From: Octopus vulgaris
Lineage: Eukaryota
Direction of reading: 5' to 3'
DNA length: 64,000 bases
Assembly (NCBI GenBank): GCA_951406725.2
Contig: OX597817.1
Location: forward strand, 90,830,001-90,894,000
Both the position numbers and the translations under genes were made by a program. Positions 3,665 to 55,800 of the stretch are shown here, in pieces (position 1 is the stretch's first letter; each line of letters starts with the position of its first letter). Below the pieces are notes generated by a model that was not told where the DNA came from, did not search any database, and saw nothing but the letters and a program-made list of their open reading frames with translations.

Positions 3665-4960
3665 ATCTTTTATCTTTTCCTTGTTTCAATCATTTGACTG
3701 CAACCATGCTAGAGCACAACCGTGAAGAATTTTTAGTCAAATGAATCAACCTCAGTACTTATTTATGTTAAGCCTGGTACTTATTCTATCAATCTCTTTT
3801 ACTGAACTAAGATATGGGGTCATAAACGTACCAACACTGGTTATCAAGCAGTGGTGGGGACAAATACAGACACAAACACACACACAAGAGGGTACTCAAA
3901 AGTAATCAGAAACATTCTCTGTGGGACAAGCCTGTTGTAGTTCATGCTTCTGCCACTAGAAGCCATTTGATGTGACCTTCAAGCATCAGTATGCTGACTG
4001 GTGTCATCGAGTGTAGTCCTACTGCCACATGATGTATCTTTGCTTTGCAGTACTTCTCCCCTGTTCATCAATTTTTGCTGAAATGAAGGAACAGTGTGTT
4101 TCTGTGAAATTCTGTTTCCTGCTGAGAAAAATGGTGGCTGAAACAATTGTCATGCTTCTAACAGCTTACAAGGACACTGCCATGAGCAAAACACATGTTT
4201 ATGAGTGGTTTTCATGCTTTAGGAATGGTCATTTGTCACTTGAAGATCAACCTCATTCAGGGCATCCATCGACCTCCTGAATGAATGAAAACATCATGAA
4301 AATTCATGAAATGATCTTGGCAGACCAGTACCAAACAATTGACATGGAGTGTTCTGGAACTCCTGTCAATGAATTTTGAGTGAGGAATTGCAAATGAAAA
4401 GAGTTACAGCAAAGCTTGTGCCTCACTTGCTCACAGAAGATCAAAAGCAGTCAGGAATGAATGTGTGTCATGAACTGGAAGAACAGTTGGAAATTGATCT
4501 GGACTTTCTTTTGAAGGTCATCACTGGTAATGAAAGCTGGTGCTACAGAATTTGCAGATGTGGAAGAGGTGAAGAAGAAAAAACAATGGGGACGTTAAAA
4601 GGTATCACTTTGCAAGAGTTCCAGCACCACTTCGAACAGTGGAAAATGTGTTTGAATGAATGCGTTGCTTCAAATGGAGAATAGTTTGAAGGTGATAAAA
4701 GTGTAAACATGTAAAACTAAGTGAATAAAATAATATTGCAAAATTTCATTTTCGTTTGGGTACCCCTTTGCATATATATATATATACATACATACACAAC
4801 AGGCTTGTTTCAGTTTCTCTCTACCAAATCCGCTCACATGGCTTTGTCAGCCCAAGGCTATAGCAGAAGATACTTGCCCAAGGTGCCATGCAGTGGGACT
4901 GAACCCAGAACTGTGAAATTGGGAAGCAAGCATCTTCCCTCACATCCACACCTGCATCTG
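3665..4960 (-). mobile_element. SINE family B split by a mariner insertion
   Basis: The tail half at 3665-3884 and the head half at 4790-4960 together match the intact copy at 9663-10080. Confidence 0.8.
3885..4770 (+). mobile_element. Internally deleted mariner transposon relic
   Basis: ORFs 4029-4280 and 4376-4684 give EQCVSVKFCF..., VYEWFSCFRNG..LEDQPHSGHPST, LVPHLLTEDQK (WVPHEL box), ITGNESWCY and CVASNGE.FEG. Imperfect TIRs are caagagggtactcaaa and tttgggtacccctttg. The catalytic core after the first D position is deleted. Confidence 0.9.
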
Positions 4961-36054: not shown

Positions 36055-38090
36055 CATCATCATCGTCGTCATCGTCATTGTTTAACGTCCGCTTTCCATG
36101 CTGGCATGGGTTGGACAGTTTGACTGAGGACTGGCGATCCAGAGGGCTGCACCATACTCCAATCTGATATGGCAAAGTTTCTACAGCTGGATACCCTTCC
36201 TAACACCAACCACTCCGAGAGTATAGTGGGTGCTTTTACATGCCACTGGCATGAGGGCCAGTCAGGCAGTTCTGGCAACGACCACACTCAAAAGGTGTTT
36301 TTTATGTGCTACCTGCACAGGAGCCAGTCTGGTGGCACTGGCAATAACCATGCTTGAATTTTTTTTTCATGTGCCACTAGCACATGTGTGAGTAAGGCAA
36401 CACTGGCAATAATCACGCATGAATGGTGCTTTTTACATTCCAATCAGCAGCCCTGGCAACAATCATGCTTGGATGGTGCTTTTAATGTTCCAATGGTACA
36501 AGTGCCAACCATGCAGTACTGTCATCAGCCACGTCGGTGATTTTAATTTTGATTTCACTTGCCTCAACAGGTCTTCACAAGCAAAGTTTCTTGTCTAATG
36601 AATGAGGGGTACTCATAAGTGGGCTGGTTGCACCCACTAGCACAGGCCACAGGTTATGGTCTAACTTGGCCTGTCAGGTCTTCTCAAGCACAACATATCT
36701 CCAACATATCTCTTGACCACTAGTCATTGCCTCGGTGAGGCCCAATGTTCGAAGGTCATGCTTCACCACCTCATCCCAGATCTTCCTGGCTCTACCTCTC
36801 CCACAGGTTCCCTCTACTGCTAGGATGTGACACTTTTGCACACAGCTGTCCTCATTCATTTGCAACACATGACCATACCAGCACAGTCATCTCTCTTGCA
36901 CACCACATCTGATGCTTCTTGAATCCAACTTTTCTCTCAGGGCACTTATACTCTGTTGTGTATGCTCACTGACATTACACATCCAGTGGAGCATATTGGT
37001 TTCATTCCTTGCAAGCTTACTCATGTCATCAGCAGTCATGGCCAATGTTTCACTGCTATGTAGCATGGCTGTTTGTACACATGCATCATACAGTCTACCT
37101 TTTACCCTGAGTGAGAGGCCCCTTGTCACAAGCAGAGGTAGGAGCTCTCTGAACTTTGTCTAGGCTATTCTTATTCTAGCAGCTACACTTTCAGAACATC
37201 CACCCCCACTACTGATTTGGTCACCTAGGTAACAGAAGCTATCAACTACTTGCAATTTTTCCCCCTGGAATGTGACGGAAGCTGTTCTCTGCACATCTTC
37301 AGTGTTTATAGCACCTGAGCATTTGCCACATACAAAAACTATCTTCCCAGTTAGCCTTCCTTTGATATTGCTGCACCTCTTATGTTTCCATAGCTTACAC
37401 TGGGTATAAACTTATGGAGTTTTTACCTACGCCTTTTTCTACAGATTAAGCAGGGCCATCTACCTGAAGGGATTTGTGGTTTGACTGCCTTCTTATTTAT
37501 TAAGACTTTGGTTTTAGCTAGGTTGACTCTAAGGCCCTTCGATTCTAATTCTTGTTTCCACACCTGAAACTTTTCCTCTAGTCCTGATAGTGACTCAGCA
37601 ATTAGAGCAAGGTCATCAGCATAGAGGAGCTCCCAGGGGCATTCTGTCATGAATTCCTCTGTTATTGCCTGGAGGACTAGGATGAATAAGAGGGGGCTGA
37701 GGACTGATCCTTGGTTGACCTCTACCCCTACCTGGAATTCTTCAGTGTACTCATTGTCAATCCTCACCTTACTGACAGCATCTCTGTATATGGCTTGCAC
37801 AGCTCTCACTAAACACTCATCTATCCCTAGTTTCCTCATTGACCACCAGATAAGGGATCAGGGGACCTTGTTAAACACTTTCTCCGTGTTAATGAAAGCC
37901 AGGTACAGAGGTTTATCTTTGGCTAGGTATTTCTCCTGCAGCTGTCTTACTAGAAATATAGCGCCAGTGGTGCTTTTCTCTGGTACGAACCGAAACTGCA
38001 TCTCATCTAGACTGACCCTCTCTCTAATTAGTTGGGCTATGACCCTCTCCATGAACTTAATAACCTGATCCAAGAACTTGATACCTCGTG
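36055..38090 (-). mobile_element. 5'-truncated RTE LINE with PHD-like insert, repeat-rich 3' UTR and (GAT)n tail
   Basis: QFRFVPEKSTTGAIFLVRQLQEK, AFINTEKVFNKVP, VNQGSVLSPLLF, LLYADDL, GLRVNLAKTKVL, KGRLYDACVQTAMLHSSETL and GRGRARKIWDEVV. Several frameshifts and stops. Confidence 0.95.
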
Positions 38091-42961: not shown

Positions 42962-43870
42962 GTACATATGTGTATGTGTGTGTATGTGAATGTGTGTAAG
43001 ACTTACTATCTCTATCTTGAATCTCTGTCCCACAATTCTCCATTTCTTTCAACTCTCTCAACATTTGTCTTCATGTGGAAGTCCTATCACGTCACTGGTA
43101 TCATAACCAAAAGTGAATAGTGATGGAAATAATATAGATATGTTACAGAAATACAAACATACACAGGTCTTTCACATGTACAAACACAGTTGTTCAGCAT
43201 TTCTACATAGATACATATCTTCTTCCTATATGCGCGCGCACACACACACACACACACACACAAGCTCTCACACGCTTCTGTTCAAAAAACAAAATTTCTC
43301 ATCTAATCTTCAACAATCTCCGTTTAACAGAAATGAAACCTTGACTTGTGATTTTAACCATTTTCAGAAGACATGGAAATGTTGATAATCATTTCAGTCT
43401 TAGAATGATCCAAATTTTACAATACCAATGATTAATCTAACACTTAAAGTGTAAATCTGGAATCTTCAGCTTCATTATCATAGCACTAAAATTTGTAGAA
43501 CATTAAGAATAATAAATAATTAAAACATCATTACTTAAATACTTTGCTTTTGGTTTTTAGTCACTGATAACATCTCGCTTATTGCAATAACATAATTAAT
43601 AATGACAGAAGCAGTATTAATACCAAAATATAATATTAATCCCAATTTAGAAGTGGATGTTGTGTAAGAACACGGAATACTGCATTAGTTACCCAAAGAG
43701 AACCTTTCATATGGAATGGCACAAATTATCACTCATGTTTATAACGCTAGTGGGAGATAATCATGCACCATCACTGCCAAGAGTACCAGATCACATGATT
43801 TCAACTCTCCTTGGCTTTGTCAATAGTAGATACCCAAAGCTAAGGTAGCAGCAATAAGTATAGAATCTTC

Positions 43871-45256
43871 ATAATCAACAACAATGATGAAAAGAAATGG
43901 GGCGAGTGTGTCTCCCTGCAGTATTCCAGCTTTGATTGAGAAAGATGATGTTTCTCCGTCAGGGGTTAAGATGGTTGAAGACGTATCTGTGTAGAGGACC
44001 TTGATGGCAGAAATGATTTTGTCTGGTATCACATAGAGCTTAAGGATTTCAAACATCTTGTACCTATCTACAGAATCGAACGCTTTAGAAAAGTCTACAA
44101 ATACCATTGCAAGATTGTGATTAAATGCTTTTGATTCTTTAATAAGTCTGCGTAGGCATAGTATCTGGCTCAGCGTTGAGCGCCCATGTCTGAATCCATT
44201 TTGGTTCTTTCGGAGCAAAGGTTCAACAAAAAGGACAAGACGATTTAGGATCAGTTTGTTGTACAGTTTTGCAGCAATTGACATTAGAGATATACCCCTG
44301 TAGTTGGTGACGAGGGATAAATCGCCTTTTTTGGGTCAAAGCCGGAATACTGCAGGGAGACACACTCGCCCCATTTCTTTTCATCATTGTTGTTGATTAT
44401 GTGCTACGTATGTCAGTTGATACCATCTCTGGCAAGGGCTTTGAAATAAAACCAAGAAGTTCCAGACACCCAGCTGAGTACTTGACAGACACTGACTTTG
44501 CTGACGACATCGTTCTTATCAGTGATTCTCTCTCCAATGCCCAGTCTCTTTTACAATCTCTTGAACAAGCCTCAAATTGTGTAGGTCTTTACCTCAATGA
44601 GGCCAAGACTGAATACATAAACAAGTGTCTGTCCAACAGTGATTGCATCATCCATACTCTCAACAATGCGCCCTTAAATATGGTTTCTGATTACAAATAT
44701 CTTGGGTCATACATATCATCATCTGGAAATGACTTTCTAACTAGAAAGGGTATAAGATCTGGTAATGACATGCATAAGATCTGGTCATCAAATCTAAGTA
44801 GAGACTTCAAACTTGAAATCTTCAAAGCCACAGTCGAACCAATTCTACTATATGGCTCAGAAACCTGGACGTTATCAAAGAAGCTTGAGAGGTGGTTGGA
44901 TGGAACCTACACTCGCCTCCTTATGAGAGATCAAAATCTCTCGTGGAAGTGCCATCCAACCAAAATGCAAATATATGGGAAACTACCACCTGTGTCATCT
45001 CTTGTGAAAGGTAAGAGAGTCCAGTTTGCTGGACATTGTTGTAGAGCTGAAAAAGAGGTAAATTCTACTCTTCTCCTCTGGAAGCCATCTACTCGCAATA
45101 CCAGAGGGCGCACACTCTCCTACCCTGATGTAATCTCCAGGGATACAGACATCCAGCAACAGGACCTCCGTAATGCCATGATGGACCGTGAAGTCTGGTA
45201 AATTCCAGCATGGTAAATTCCATTGTCTCGACCACGGTTGAACAATGATGATGATG
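43871..45256 (+). mobile_element. Young RTE LINE insertion with 5' inversion and 11-bp TSD
   Basis: The inverted segment 43871-44335 reads PKKGDLSLVTNYRGISLMS...QNGFR...FVDFSKAFDSV...GILQGDTLAP. The sense segment 44336-45256 reads GILQGDTLAP...DFADD...YKYLGS...LLYGSETW...FAGHC and ends in (ATG)n. The TSD atagaatcttc is at 43860-43870 and 45257-45267. Confidence 0.95.
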
Positions 45257-48154: not shown

Positions 48155-49050
48155 TTCCACAAAAGAAGTGCTACAAATATGTAGGTATTGATGAAAATAT
48201 ATGATACAAAGGTAGGAACAAAAATAGAGTAAACATAGAAATTACAGCAGACTGGAAAATATGTGGAAGCCAGAGTTTTCCTCTTACATGACAACATCCC
48301 ACAATGCATTTGCAGTGCCCATAACCGATACCAACATTTTTGATACCCAACTGTTCTATAGAAAAAATCCTTTCCAAAGATTCTAACATCAACAGCAAAT
48401 TTTACTAAAACAGTGATATTGACAGACACTGTCTTCGAAGAAAAGAGAGTGCCTTTGAGTGTCATGTGATATCACAGTGCTATATTGACCAGATCCTAAG
48501 ACCTCAAATCGTGCCCTTTTTTGCATGTCACCATAGTCACGTGTCCCAGCAGGACAATACTCCCTCCCACACAACCAGGGTCACCATGGACTTCCTGCGG
48601 CAGCACAACATGAGAACCATGACGTGGCCAGTTCTCAGCCTGGATGTGAGCCCAACTGAACACCTGTGGGATGAAATCCAGAGACAGCTGAACCAGGTGG
48701 TCCCAAGGCTGGTAACTCATGTGGAGCTGGAGCCAGCTTTCCTCAGAGTGTGGACAAAGGTGCCAATGGCTTTAGTGAACTGCTTCATGCACTCCATGTA
48801 CCAACAGTGTAGGGTCATTTTGAACACTCAGGGAGGGCATACACGGTATTGAACCTGTCATGCCCTACAATCTCGATTTGCTGGATCTGCCCACTACCAG
48901 AACACATGACAATGACCCATAGACTATAGACAAAGTGCATCCAAGAAATTGACTTTATCAGATTTATCAAAATTTATATCTGACATAATGAAATTAAAAC
49001 ATATTTCAGTCACAATCGTATCACGCATTTCTTTTGTATTTCAGTGTATA
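48155..49050 (+). mobile_element. Tc1-family transposon relic (C-terminal DD34E region)
   Basis: ORF 48466-48852 reads YIDQILRPQIVPF...QQDNTPSHT...WPVLSLDVSPTEHLWDEI...GGHTRY. A partial TIR pair is caaaagaagtgc (48160) and gcatttcttttg...cagtgTA (49025-49050). Confidence 0.88.
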
Positions 49051-49190: not shown

Positions 49191-49863
49191 ACAATGTTAG
49201 CTGTGGCTCAGCTGCATCAGTGTACACATTTTCTGCTCTTTAGTCCAAAAAAGGGGATGACCAGGTTGCCAAAATGAATTTTCTTTCACAACAGCAGCAA
49301 CAAAATATTTTGCTTTTTGAACTATATATTCACCTGCAGTATAAAAGAGGGTTTGCATTTCTGGCCAGCATGTCTGAAGAGGCATTGACAAGTGAAATAG
49401 GTGTGAAAGAGTTGCAGTTATATGCCATAACCAAGAATATATTTCTCAACACCATGAGAGAATATACATATGTATAACACACACAAACATAGATGCATAT
49501 TTATCTATCTTCATGTGTATGTGTGTATACATACATATATATATAGTTCAAATTTAGAGAAAAACAAAGATGAAGACAAGAAAGTGTATTAATTTGACAC
49601 TTGGGAAAAATGGAAATGTCTTTTACATTTCGAACCTGCACTCTTCGACGGAAAAGAATAAGAGGAAATAGAAAGTGAATGAAAAATCTGTGTTGAGTTT
49701 TGGTTGTCCAATATCTATCTCTGTATGTATGTGTGTGTGTATATATATATATATACATACATATATATATATATATATGTAGGTCCTGGGTTGAGTCGGG
49801 GTTAACCACAGTAAATAAGGTACTCAATACATAGCAGAGTAAATTAATTTATTTTATAGAAGG

Positions 49864-49914
49864 AACTTCTACAGGACTAGAACTGTTTCATTCAAATGAA
49901 ATCATCAGGAAGCT
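49864..49914 (-). ncRNA. Type I hammerhead ribozyme fold (left arm)
   Basis: AGCUUC-CUGAUGA-U.UUC(AUUU)GAA.U-GAAA-CAG(UUCUAGUC)CUG-U-A/GAAGUU. The core is intact and stems I-III can form. Confidence 0.75.
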
Positions 49915-50105
49915 TGCTGTCAAAATAAGTTTTGGCATTTATACATTTAGGCAGGTTTAATGGGGTGGTGGTGGGGGACATTTTTTGGGTAAGCAGGGCA
50001 CAAACTGTCTTTCTTAGGGGAGTGGTCAAAAGAATCAGTGATAAAGTAAATAAATGAATAAATAGAATAATTGAATAGAGTTTTAGGTAAATAAGAAGAC
50101 TATCG

Positions 50106-50145
<40 letters not shown>

Positions 50146-51006
50146 TACATACACATACATACACACACATACACATACATACACACACACATATATATAC
50201 ATACACACATATATACAAATACACATACACATACATGCCAACACGCAAACACACGCACACATATATCTACACATATATAAATAAATATATACACCCATAC
50301 ACACACACATATATATATATGTATATATACATACATATACACACACATTTTTATATACATATATACACACATATATATACACACATATATATATATATAC
50401 ATATATACACACATACATATATATATATATACATATATACACACATACATATACTCATATATATATATACATATATACACACACATACATATACTCATAC
50501 ATACACACATGTGTGTGTATGTATGAGTATATATATATGTGTGTGTATATATGTGTGTATATATATGTGTGTATATATGTATATAAAAATGTGTGTGTAT
50601 ATGTATATATACATATATATATATGTGTGTGTGTATGGGTGTGTATATTTATTTGTATATGTGTAGATATATGTGTGCATGTGTTTGCATGTTGGCATGT
50701 ATGTGTATGTGTATTTGTATATATGTGTATGTATATATATGTGTGTGTATATGTATGTGTATGTGTGTGTATGTATGTGTATGTATATATGTGTATATAT
50801 ATATATATATATAAGCGATAGTCTTCTTATTTACCTAAAACTCTATTCAATTATTCTATTTATTCATTTATTTACTTCATCACTGATTCTTTTGACCACT
50901 CCCCTAAGAAAGACAGTTTGTGCCCTGCTTACCCAAAAAATGTCCCCCACCACCACCCCATTAAACCTGCCTAAATGTATAAATGCCAAAACTTATTTTG
51001 ACAGCA

Positions 51007-51057
51007 AGCTTCCTGATGATTTCATTTGAATGAAACAGTTCTAGTCCTGTAGAGGCT
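51007..51057 (+). ncRNA. Type I hammerhead ribozyme fold (right arm)
   Basis: AGCUUC-CUGAUGA-U.UUC(AUUU)GAA.U-GAAA-CAG(UUCUAGUC)CUG-U-A/GAGGCU, with predicted cleavage after A51051. Confidence 0.75.
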
Positions 51058-51323
51058 CCTTCTATAAAATAAATATATATATATATATATAATGTTAATA
51101 ATAAGGAGGATGGAGATTTGTACATCGATAATTCAGTTTACAGTCATACACAGCATATTACCATGACTTATATGTGTTTGCACTGCAACTGTACACCATT
51201 GCAGATGCAACCTTGCAACAATGTCAGTGCAGTTTCATCAGGGTCTGTATATTAGATCCACTTTGAATTAAACTCTGCTCACAGAGCAAATACAGTATCC
51301 ACCTGGATAATGTATCCCTGCAA

Positions 51324-52899: not shown

Positions 52900-55800
52900 A
52901 CACACTCATAGCCTCAGTGTGCCATATTATTAGATATTGTGTCTGACTCTCTCATACATAGATCATCATCATCTGTTAAGGTCAGTTCTCCATTCTGGCA
53001 TGAGTTGGATGGTTTGCCACCTCTCCTCTTCAACATATTCAAGCACAGCATTAGCAATCAGTCTCTGTTCATCAGTAAGTGTTGCAATGCCTGGATGATT
53101 GAGGTCTTCATGATGGCCAAGATGCAGTACTCCAATAAGTTCAGGCAGCCCAATTGCTAAACAATTAATGCCATTATCTATCAGAATTGCATCAATTGAG
53201 TGCAGTGCCATGTTTTCTGTGTGTTCTGCATTAAAACCTTGGTGCAAGATATCTTCAATCATGGATTCCTTGTAAGTGGTCTACAGGTGAAGAGCATTTG
53301 CAGAGTTCATATACATGCACAGGGCAGCAAACATAACATGCAACTGTAAGGGCATCCGACAGGCAGCAGCTTCTAGCAATGCATGTTCCAGTGTGTCATC
53401 ATTTGAGAGAAGACCATATCTCAGGCATGCTGCCTTAACTATTGGCAAGATTTCTCCTTCTACAGTGTGCAAATCCTGGAAGTTCATGGCGCCTGAAACA
53501 TGCAGCAGCAACATTCACAAGTGAATTTTTTCTGTGTCTCTAGGGCTCACTGTATACATTCTACTGATGATATTAGTATTCCTTTGCCTTGATGTCCATG
53601 TTCTAGTGCGCTCATTAAACACATAACACAGCGGAATGTCAGTGTGGAAGTGGTTCCTTGCATCATCATTGTCAAGCTCATTCAGTTTGAACCATGCAGT
53701 GAGGGTAGTGTCATGGTCCCTCTCTGCTTGAGCAGCTTGCTGAGTGCTGTCTCTGTGAAAGTAAACTCTTTGCTGGCCTTCAAGATGTACTGCAAGTCTG
53801 TAGACAGTGTGAGATGCATCAGGTAGCTTGAACTCTGACAGTTTCCACATAGCTTCCAGAGAAGAAACATATCGGCAAGCAAGATAATTAGTAATTTCAT
53901 TGTGAGCTTGATTCTGCTTATGATCCGCTACTGTCTCTTACTTCAACAGAAGCACAGTTATGTCCCTTGTACATGTATTTGAAGATATATTTAAGGCTTT
54001 TCACGGATAAACAAATTTCTACATTAATGTGAGCTCTGGGCTTTTTCAATAGGTAGGCACTGTATGGCACAACGTTCCTGTTGTCAACTGAGTGATGTCA
54101 AACTTGAGCTGTGATTCCAGTATAGCATCTTCTGTACTCTAGATAGCTATTCAAATTCAGAAGCATTTCATCTCTGTAGTTCTTTGGGAATTTCTTTTGA
54201 TATGAACCATTTTCCATGCAAGGGGAGGAAGGATTATCTGTTCCACAAGGGCCATGTGTCATGCATTTTTTTTCTAAATCATGCAAGAGTGGATCATCAT
54301 TGGCATCAGGGATTTCAGCTGTCACGATCCTATCTATGTCATCACTGTTTCTGAGTTTGTCCTCGTTTCTCAACACTACCAACATGTGGCAGTGGGGAAG
54401 ACCTCTCTTCTGAAACTCAATGACATGGACATGAGCCACTGGCACTGCAAAAATGTGTCTATCCTTTATGTCCCTCATAAGTTCTGCAAGGTGTGACTTC
54501 TGCACTCGGGCAACTAAATCTGGCCTATGTTCAGGTGTTTCATTTTGCTGTAGATTATCAACTATCTCAAGGCACTTCAAATTGCAAGTGTAAGGGATGA
54601 ACAAATCTAGCTTAGCACATTTTGAAACAATTAACATGACATCCTGAAAATATTAGTGCATATTCTTTGGACTGCCTGTGAATGAGGAAGGCAGTATCAC
54701 TTGCACTCCTGGTTCAATATTCTCATCTACTCCTGTGTTCAAATAGTCCATCAATCTGTTGTACCTTTTCACTCACAACTAGGTTGGATTGTTCCTAAGA
54801 TATTGCAACCTGCAATCTTCAACCTTGACATATACATCTACAACATACTATTGAAATAATTTTTCAGCTCTATGAATAACACTAAGCCCATCTCTGAATG
54901 TCAGACGATAGCTGTAGTATTCTTGCACTGTCAGACGATTACGCACACATGTCTGGTGTTCCTCAACATGTTGCATCTCAAAATGCCATCCAAATTCCCA
55001 TGGGGAAACAGAATTGGGTAGCTCATAGTGTCAAGTGGCACGACGAGTAAATTATTTTTTTCAGGAGGAGCATCTCTGGAATGCACAATAATGTCTCTAT
55101 TTTCAGGAGGGGCACCAATTTTCTCCAGCAAACATTGTTGCTATTTCATTGCTGATAGGGAAATTGTAGCGTCTAATATCGGATCCTCTCCTGAAACGTA
55201 ACTCAAGTCTCCATATTGGCACGTTGTCTCTTCTGGCTCTCTCCTCTCCTTATTTAACTGCATGCATTTTCTTGTACAATTCTGCATAAGGATTAATTTG
55301 GTGGATAACAACACTTATTTTTCTCATAGTAACAGGGGAACACTCAGAATTTTGAGGTGCATCCATCCTGTGCTGCAGAGCTTCATCCGCATCAATGATG
55401 TATAACTGGCAGTATTGCAGTTGAGCATTAGCAGGATGTAGGTTTGTCATTGTGTGGTTAGTTTGGCCCTGAATGCAGAAGCAATATGGATCCCTTCCTG
55501 GAAGTGCTTCAAGTTTGACTCCAAATGACGCAAAGGAGAAGGTACAATTGTAATTTCTGATATTTCTACGGAATGAAATAAACTCTTGATCAATTCCCTC
55601 AAATAAATTTTTGAGTGTCTCTTGATATGGTTGCAGTGCAGGTATGTTCACTTTTCCATTGAGGCAACAACTGTTATTTTCATTTCTAAACCTAAGCGCA
55701 CCACAGTATTCACATATAATGTTCATTTCTCCTCTGTTAAATTGTTCAGCACTGGCCTATGTCTTCTCACATACTGTCGCTGTATCTGATGCCTCCTTAA

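Follow-up and report, generated by a model that had tools for sequence, protein, structure and literature searches.

RESULTS

A palindrome of two unequal arms lies in a (TA)n tract

We analyzed a window of 64,000 nucleotides of the Octopus vulgaris genome (contig OX597817.1, positions 90,830,001 to 90,894,000, forward strand); positions given without a sequence name refer to this window. A palindrome occupies 49779-51074, and its features are listed in Table 1. The two arms differ by 3 transitions in 263 bp (at 49865/51056, 49867/51054, and 50043/50878), in line with a first-pass annotation of this DNA. When the arms and the mirrored microsatellite between them are compared together, 9 substitutions, every one a transition, are found over 528 aligned bases, with 19 gap columns besides. 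The center is the self-complementary ACACATGTGT, and nothing foreign lies between the arms, again as the annotation had described. The annotation also placed the arms correctly but overlooked their asymmetry, as the left arm carries a 68-bp outer tail and approximately 90 more inner-repeat bases. This tail extends to a (TA)n tract on the left, whereas on the right the arm itself abuts (TA)n. The mirrored microsatellite is a component of the element and recurs in many copies, and the flanks of the palindrome are different unique sequences.

Table 1. Features of the palindrome and its borders in window coordinates
Feature	Position	Strand	Remarks
(TA)n target microsatellite, left end	49740-49778		Called by TRF; almost all family ends abut (TA)n
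68-bp outer tail; putative RT start site T	49779-49846	-	In full copies, lies between pseudo-LTR and ORF start; copy L103 runs from tail into ORF
Left pseudo-LTR arm, 3' end of Hydra-clade PLE	49847-50109	-
Left type I hammerhead fold; predicted cut after 49870	49864-49914	-	Layout as in the Hydra-clade motifs of File S2 of PMC8557442
TATAAAT box, 29 bp upstream of first hammerhead base; predicted outward-facing promoter	49937-49943	-	Spacing of 29 in 88/92 arms; promoter activity putative
Left microsatellite-like 3' UTR copy, 5'-truncated	50110-50509	-	Degenerate repeat words common to other copies, also between ORF and arm
Head-to-head junction at ACACATGTGT; putative microhomology join	50505-50514
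Right microsatellite-like 3' UTR copy, 5'-truncated	50510-50811	+
Right pseudo-LTR arm; inner, tail-less end is putative RT start site S	50812-51074	+
TATAAAT box, 29 bp upstream of first hammerhead base; predicted outward-facing promoter	50978-50984	+
Right type I hammerhead fold; predicted cut after 51051	51007-51057	+
(TA)n target microsatellite, right end; no readable target-site duplication	51075-51091

The palindrome could in principle be a product of assembly, through a fold-back read or a chimeric join in the microsatellite. Four public contig runs compared with 50820-51320 gave enormous depth on the arm and right flank in three; none bridges the right junction, and on C23 a related arm runs up to a gap. 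Against such an origin, mirrored flanks and identical arms would be expected from a fold-back read, and neither is seen here. The ends of the palindrome also obey the tail/no-tail rule of the family described below, and the layout recurs at 50 sampled loci. We therefore regard an assembly artifact as extremely improbable.

A Pfam scan of 173 ORF segments of the window (25 long and 148 of 159 shorter ones) recognized transposon domains only and no host exon; because short exons escape such a scan, an intronic position of the locus is possible. Elsewhere in the window, two back-to-back RVT_1 fragments (43823-44335 on the minus strand and 44311-45198 on the plus strand) each match one half of the profile, the first and the second in turn, an arrangement like that of a 5'-inverted LINE copy. 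Further matches are a Helitron (54101-54652, minus), a weak DDE_3 (48409-48849, plus), a Mos1 HTH (4017-4277, plus), and another RVT_1 fragment (37426-37857, minus).

Each arm carries a predicted type I hammerhead

The first-pass annotation reported a complete hammerhead fold in each arm, and the core and three stems are indeed present on both strands. As modeled from the arm sequences, the pseudo-LTR holds a canonical type I hammerhead with the core CTGATGA-T...T-GAAA, stem III ACAG/CTGT, and the triplet GTA, and self-cleavage is predicted. In stem I, AGCTTC pairs with GAGGCT in the right arm or with GAAGTT in the left arm; two of the three differences between the unique arms sit in this stem, with pairing kept. 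The A-to-G change in stem I of the right arm has 10 matches genome-wide and is no hotspot. The T.T pair that closes stem II and the stem III sequence ACAG/CTGT-A agree with the Hydra-clade hammerheads compiled in File S2 of PMC8557442. An Rfam scan returned no hammerhead at E values up to 1, and its 97 hits were microRNA and snoRNA models on the microsatellite. Folded alone, the right-arm motif favors a stem II extended into the GAAA core (-9.2 versus -7.1 kcal/mol).

The annotation had further proposed that a transcript of the unit would be a long double-stranded RNA (dsRNA) whose fold competes with the ribozyme. The predicted fold of a whole-unit read-through RNA agrees, with 517 long-range pairs and a buried ribozyme core. 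The predicted promoters of the element, however, point outward, and with RNA starts at the hammerheads they would not produce read-through RNA of the palindrome. Dicer or ADAR action on such an RNA is possible. Between the arms, we detected no signal of ADAR-type bias, as the 9 transitions run both ways and two of them are CpG decays.

The arms match the 3' end of a Hydra-clade Penelope-like element

Arm copies that are long enough run inward into an ORF with RT and GIY-YIG parts on the same strand, forming continuous RT-EN-3' UTR-arm copies. One copy (L103) is complete and consists of a pseudo-LTR with tail, a 722-codon open frame, a 3' UTR, and a second pseudo-LTR with tail. Its frame contains the motifs RWR (residue 47), DKT (residue 125), RDD, CNCx5C (CNCPDKTTC, residue 576), CxxCxxE (CDLCISE, residue 676), and CxH (CMH, residue 704); judged by eye, a CCHH finger is absent. 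Pfam recognized neither RT nor GIY-YIG in this ORF, and a PDB sequence search with it gave 0 hits.

Hydra-clade Penelope-like elements (PLEs) are described as having RWK, DKT, CxCX5C, CxxC, and CxH motifs, no CCHH finger, and a size that is typically, although not by definition, below ~3 kb (PMC8557442). The octopus element has RT followed by a C-terminal GIY-YIG in a single ORF linked to the pseudo-LTR, as judged from motifs and a by-eye match to the published alignment. It has DKT in place of DKG, with RWR a conservative change from RWK; it also has the CxCX5C linker, CxxC and CxH motifs flanking the catalytic E and N, and insertion into (TA)n. Its size departs from the clade, at 4.8-5.7 kb from arm to arm in L103, L118, L119, and L120. 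On these motifs and the by-eye alignment match, the arm is almost certainly the pseudo-LTR end of a Hydra-clade PLE, and by the same signs the palindrome is two 5'-truncated 3' ends of this retrotransposon placed head to head in (TA)n. The first-pass view of a noncoding unit made by PLE machinery, with hammerheads in pseudo-LTRs, is borne out by this identity of the arm with the 3' end of RT-GIY-YIG copies. As an insertion, the locus is ordinary, a new Hydra-clade member in an already known layout, and it is probably a neutral relic.

Several related sequences were encountered in the same searches. At L119 and L120, the full element forms direct tandem arrays with a period of ~5.2 kb, as expected of source loci. 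The minus strand of L041 holds pieces of another Hydra-like ORF for RT and endonuclease, which has diverged. Next to a Hydra palindrome, within its (TA)n tract, lies a GC-rich PLE ORF of a different type, whose linker is C-x4-C-x2-C (L037:5111-6586, plus strand); it gives weak Pfam RVT_1 and GIY-YIG matches, and from its linker motif we take it to be Neptune-like. Near-identical flanks at L011 (C25) and L012 (C11), and at L150 and L151 (C8), mark segmental or assembly duplications rather than independent insertions.

Most insertions of the family are two-armed

A genome-wide search with the arm, as the first-pass annotation had suggested, listed 40 matches of 93-100% identity among 1,075 candidates. 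Exact copies of a hammerhead 32-mer number 7,648 genome-wide, compared with 0 for the reversed control. Among 34 other loci selected by similarity, 15 have an inverted partner within the 3-10 kb examined. As a less biased set, we took the first 100 matches of the 32-mer in positional order on C1. These include 22 outward-facing pairs less than 300 bp apart and 9 at 1.8-9.7 kb, with just 3 inward-facing neighbors within 10 kb. Each of the 31 pairs was examined, together with 28 of the 38 matches that had seemed to be single; 17 of these 28 have a partner that the exact pattern missed, 2 have a tail-only partner, and 9 have no partner within 3 kb. In total, 50 of 59 sampled insertions are two-armed, mostly of ~200 bp. 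A typical insertion of the family (L165-L186 and L187-L224, C1) comprises ~200 bp of tail, hammerhead, and inverted hammerhead. Rough extrapolation from the sample to the 7,648 matches suggests that a few thousand two-armed units are likely present genome-wide.

The search thus found inverted pairs to be common and copies to adjoin PLE ORFs. The annotation had allowed that every other copy might be a solo arm, which is not the case, and what it had taken for a special fold-back unit is an inverted 5'-truncated insertion of a known kind.

Paired arms combine two fixed ends and share variants

Copies terminate at either of two fixed sites ~68 nt apart, S (tail-less) or T (tailed), both downstream of the ribozyme cut. 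In the similarity-selected set, where 51 of 100 readable arms are tailed, one S end is combined with one T end in 27 of the 28 pairs that could be read (binomial P = 1e-7); this count leaves aside the palindrome at C18:66587694-66601341, whose left end is broken by other insertions, and the C23 pair, one end of which runs into N. The sole exception to the one-tail rule, C18:62339375, has a tail at neither end. In the position-ordered sample, an S end is combined with a T end in every one of the 50 two-armed units (43/43 upon rescoring by script, with 3 not parsed).

One tail per pair is exactly what a fold-back (snap-back) would yield, in which one tail-primed cDNA or antisense RNA would snap back on itself at a self-complementary stretch and then be copied as far as the inner end. 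The arms would be identical at birth, many junctions are palindromic, the window locus and most short units are near-symmetric, and the palindromic junctions of rotifer Penelope elements have been interpreted as self-priming (PMC3846280). Because the window locus is near-symmetric with the tailed arm the longer, fold-back at its center, which the first-pass annotation had raised as template switching, fits this locus taken alone. Under fold-back, however, a tailed arm shorter than its partner should never occur. Of 27 pairs, 15 carry the tail on the longer arm and 12 on the shorter, so that fold-back fails across the family; in pairs with more than twofold length asymmetry, the tailed arm is shorter in 8 of 16. 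Moreover, at L201, L223, and one L219 unit, an arm consisting only of a tail piece is joined to a longer tail-less arm holding sequence absent from the tailed one. A single folded cDNA or antisense RNA cannot make these units; as a general mechanism, fold-back was rejected on arm lengths and tail-only arms, and we consider it an unlikely explanation overall.

The two arms of a unit are also related to one another. In 17 young pairs, within-pair divergence is 2.2%, compared with 3.9% for shuffled partners (0/20,000 shuffles), and in several pairs both arms have variants found in no other arm. Subfamily marks are concordant within 42/43, 41/42, and 33/34 units, where chance rates are 0.53, 0.62, and 0.45. 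Two further pairs diverge at 9/251 and 10/249 sites (~4%). Inter-arm gene conversion or one dominant source per burst could also account for the likeness of arms.

These data bear on a second alternative, two-ended priming by two separate RNPs with different RNA molecules. The C23 pair speaks for it. Its copy at C23:41375846 differs from its own partner, which belongs to another subfamily, at 11/251 sites, and it shares with the window's right arm, and not with the window's left arm, a stem I variant (10 genome-wide matches) and a microsatellite variant (2 genome-wide matches). Some pairs, possibly including the one in the window, may thus stem from two RNAs, conversion, or misassembly; the C23 copy itself may reflect conversion, a daughter copy, a two-RNA event, or misassembly. 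This copy (L041/L002, C23:41375106-41376108) abuts a run of 100 N. Independent RNPs alone would leave unexplained that 77 of 78 scored pairs have one S and one T end, and the arms agree far above chance. Separate RNPs are in our judgment a doubtful explanation of the pairs in general.

In our view, the two ends of the cut target probably both prime RT on a single element RNA, one at each of two fixed sites, and the resulting cDNAs probably meet and join where a short sequence is self-complementary. In such a scheme, the endonuclease would cut both (TA)n strands; one RT would prime at S and the other at T of the same RNA; both would copy toward the RNA 5' end; and host microhomology joining would close the gap between the cDNAs. 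Priming at the downstream pseudo-LTR would give long arms, as at the window locus.

Short units end near a predicted RNA 5' end

The abundant short units have a sharp size mode of 112-116 bp between outer anchors, and 32 of 37 span at most 116 bp, the length of a unit centered on the first hammerhead bases. In 88 of 92 arms, a TATAAAT box precedes the first hammerhead base by 29 bp, a spacing kept while the spacer sequence itself varies between subfamilies. Short units mostly end 29 bp downstream of this conserved box. Priming at the upstream pseudo-LTR, with run-off at the predicted RNA start, would produce such 200-bp double-hammerhead units in abundance. The self-complementary AGCT alone, rather than an RNA 5' end, could also cause the size peak.

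Their very high copy number and sharp mode might instead suggest a self-propagating nonautonomous family (a retro-MITE, or retrozyme-like) copied as whole hairpins, of which the window locus would be a longer, possibly functional source of hairpin RNA. Yet the junctions of short units differ from copy to copy and are found in every subfamily, tracking full-length elements, and the TATA context is retained at just 1 of 37 short-unit loci. Propagation as whole hairpins is therefore very improbable. Two other classes were considered and rejected: a non-LTR retrozyme, a class with a circular RNA intermediate and a type I hammerhead in each direct tandem repeat, because the units are inverted pairs; and a MITE or foldback DNA transposon, a class with matched terminal inverted repeats, a target-site duplication, and a transposase partner, because the octopus ends are unequal (S and T), truncation differs from arm to arm, and inward the arms lead into an RT-endonuclease ORF.

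Deletions cluster at the predicted ribozyme cut

When positions +1 to +4 after the predicted cut were left free in the search pattern, 13 of the first 100 matches (C1, first 28 Mb) were variant, 12 of them by deletion; when four adjacent bases were freed instead as a control, none of 100 matches was variant (Fisher P = 1.6e-4). Genome-wide, the two patterns match 8,017 and 7,582 times, respectively, which implies that at least 435 arms are scarred at the cut site. For 12 scarred arms the partner can be seen, and each time it is unscarred. The scars would fit RT crossing cut or rejoined RNA; base-calling artifacts in hairpins could also create them.

DISCUSSION

The palindrome in the window belongs to a family whose pairing rules, taken together, are best read as support for priming at two sites of one RNA: one S and one T end per unit, a tail on an arm of either length, matched subfamilies, and short units that stop at the predicted RNA start. 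Points against it are the near-symmetry of the window locus, the mismatched C23 pair, the tail-less C18:62339375 unit, and, by analogy, the PLE Poseidon of Anolis carolinensis (PAc), whose in vitro start sites are described without a strand difference (PMC11167929). Tentatively, the family may be a genomic fossil record of Penelope insertion, in which a paired enzyme would make a double-strand cut and both ends would be primed on one RNA 68 nt apart. Most events would then copy the hammerhead only and run off the RNA 5' end, leaving thousands of 200-bp double-hammerhead hairpins, and roughly 1 arm in 10-20 would be scarred by RT crossing ribozyme-cut RNA. If this is true, the scars are in vivo evidence of PLE hammerheads firing during retrotransposition.

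The family touches two questions listed as open for PLEs, the origin of complex inverted structures and the role of the hammerhead (PMC8557442). The pairing of S with T, the ending of short units where the RNA is predicted to begin, and the cut-site scars all yield sharp predictions for the existing in vitro system (PMC11167929). Where intronic, the short perfect hairpins could supply dsRNA for ADAR or Dicer. Our literature searches found no paper on this family, on coupled S/T priming, or on cut-site scars; older Drosophila Penelope papers may discuss such models.

In L1 twin priming, both nicked target strands prime on one RNA, each cDNA copies a separate part of it, and microhomology joins them into an inversion. 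The octopus arms, in contrast, start ~68 nt apart and copy one and the same region, so that a duplicated inverted repeat results.

Among PLEs, the closest relatives are those of the Hydra clade. Like Penelope-13_HM and Hydra-1_Obim as described in PMC8557442, the octopus element has RT then GIY-YIG in one ORF, the DKT, CxCX5C, CxxC, and CxH motifs, a (TA)n target, and a hammerhead of the CTGATGAT...TGAA-ACAG...CTGT-A type. The likeness to Penelope-13_HM extends to an inverted 5'-truncated copy with hammerheads on both strands; the Hydra-clade table records for that element an inverted 5' copy and one hammerhead per strand (PMC8557442). The octopus family differs from the published descriptions in having RWR where theirs is RWK, a unit of 4.8-5.7 kb (because its microsatellite-like 3' UTR is 2-3 kb) where theirs is < ~3 kb, and a tail of 68 bp where theirs is 30-40 (PMC8557442). 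It also has very many 200-bp two-armed units, and by-eye comparison indicates that its hammerhead and protein are different from those of Hydra-1_Obim.

The Penelope families of Adineta vaga share inverted pseudo-LTRs, a tail that is optional on one of them, palindromic junctions, and a TATA box inside the pseudo-LTR, although the described families have few copies and readable target-site duplications (PMC3846280). Their inverted copies were attributed to self-priming on an antisense template (PMC3846280), an account that, as a general rule, is contradicted by the octopus arm lengths.

PAc offers the nearest biochemical parallel. Both strands are cut and extended in vitro, RT starts at two internal sites that bound the tail, a dimer is predicted, and RNA with an uncut ribozyme is the main template (PMC11167929). 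The octopus family likewise has two fixed ends bounding a tail downstream of the hammerhead cut and an AT-rich target, and its template, too, would mostly be copied with the ribozyme uncut. PAc belongs to another clade (Poseidon) and, as reported, has no strand bias in its start site; the main text of that paper does not treat inverted insertions, its lone "inverted" referring to a primer block (PMC11167929).

Non-LTR retrozymes resemble the short octopus units in being noncoding, in carrying a type I hammerhead, and in their origin from PLE pseudo-LTRs, but they are described as direct tandem arrays, whereas the octopus units are inverted pairs (bioRxiv 10.64898/2026.07.22.740005). Inverted arms with a tail at one end have been described as typical of PLEs (PMC8557442, PMC3846280). 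Judged against these accounts, the inverted layout with a one-sided tail was already known in PLEs, and what the octopus family adds is a set of pairing rules at the level of the family.
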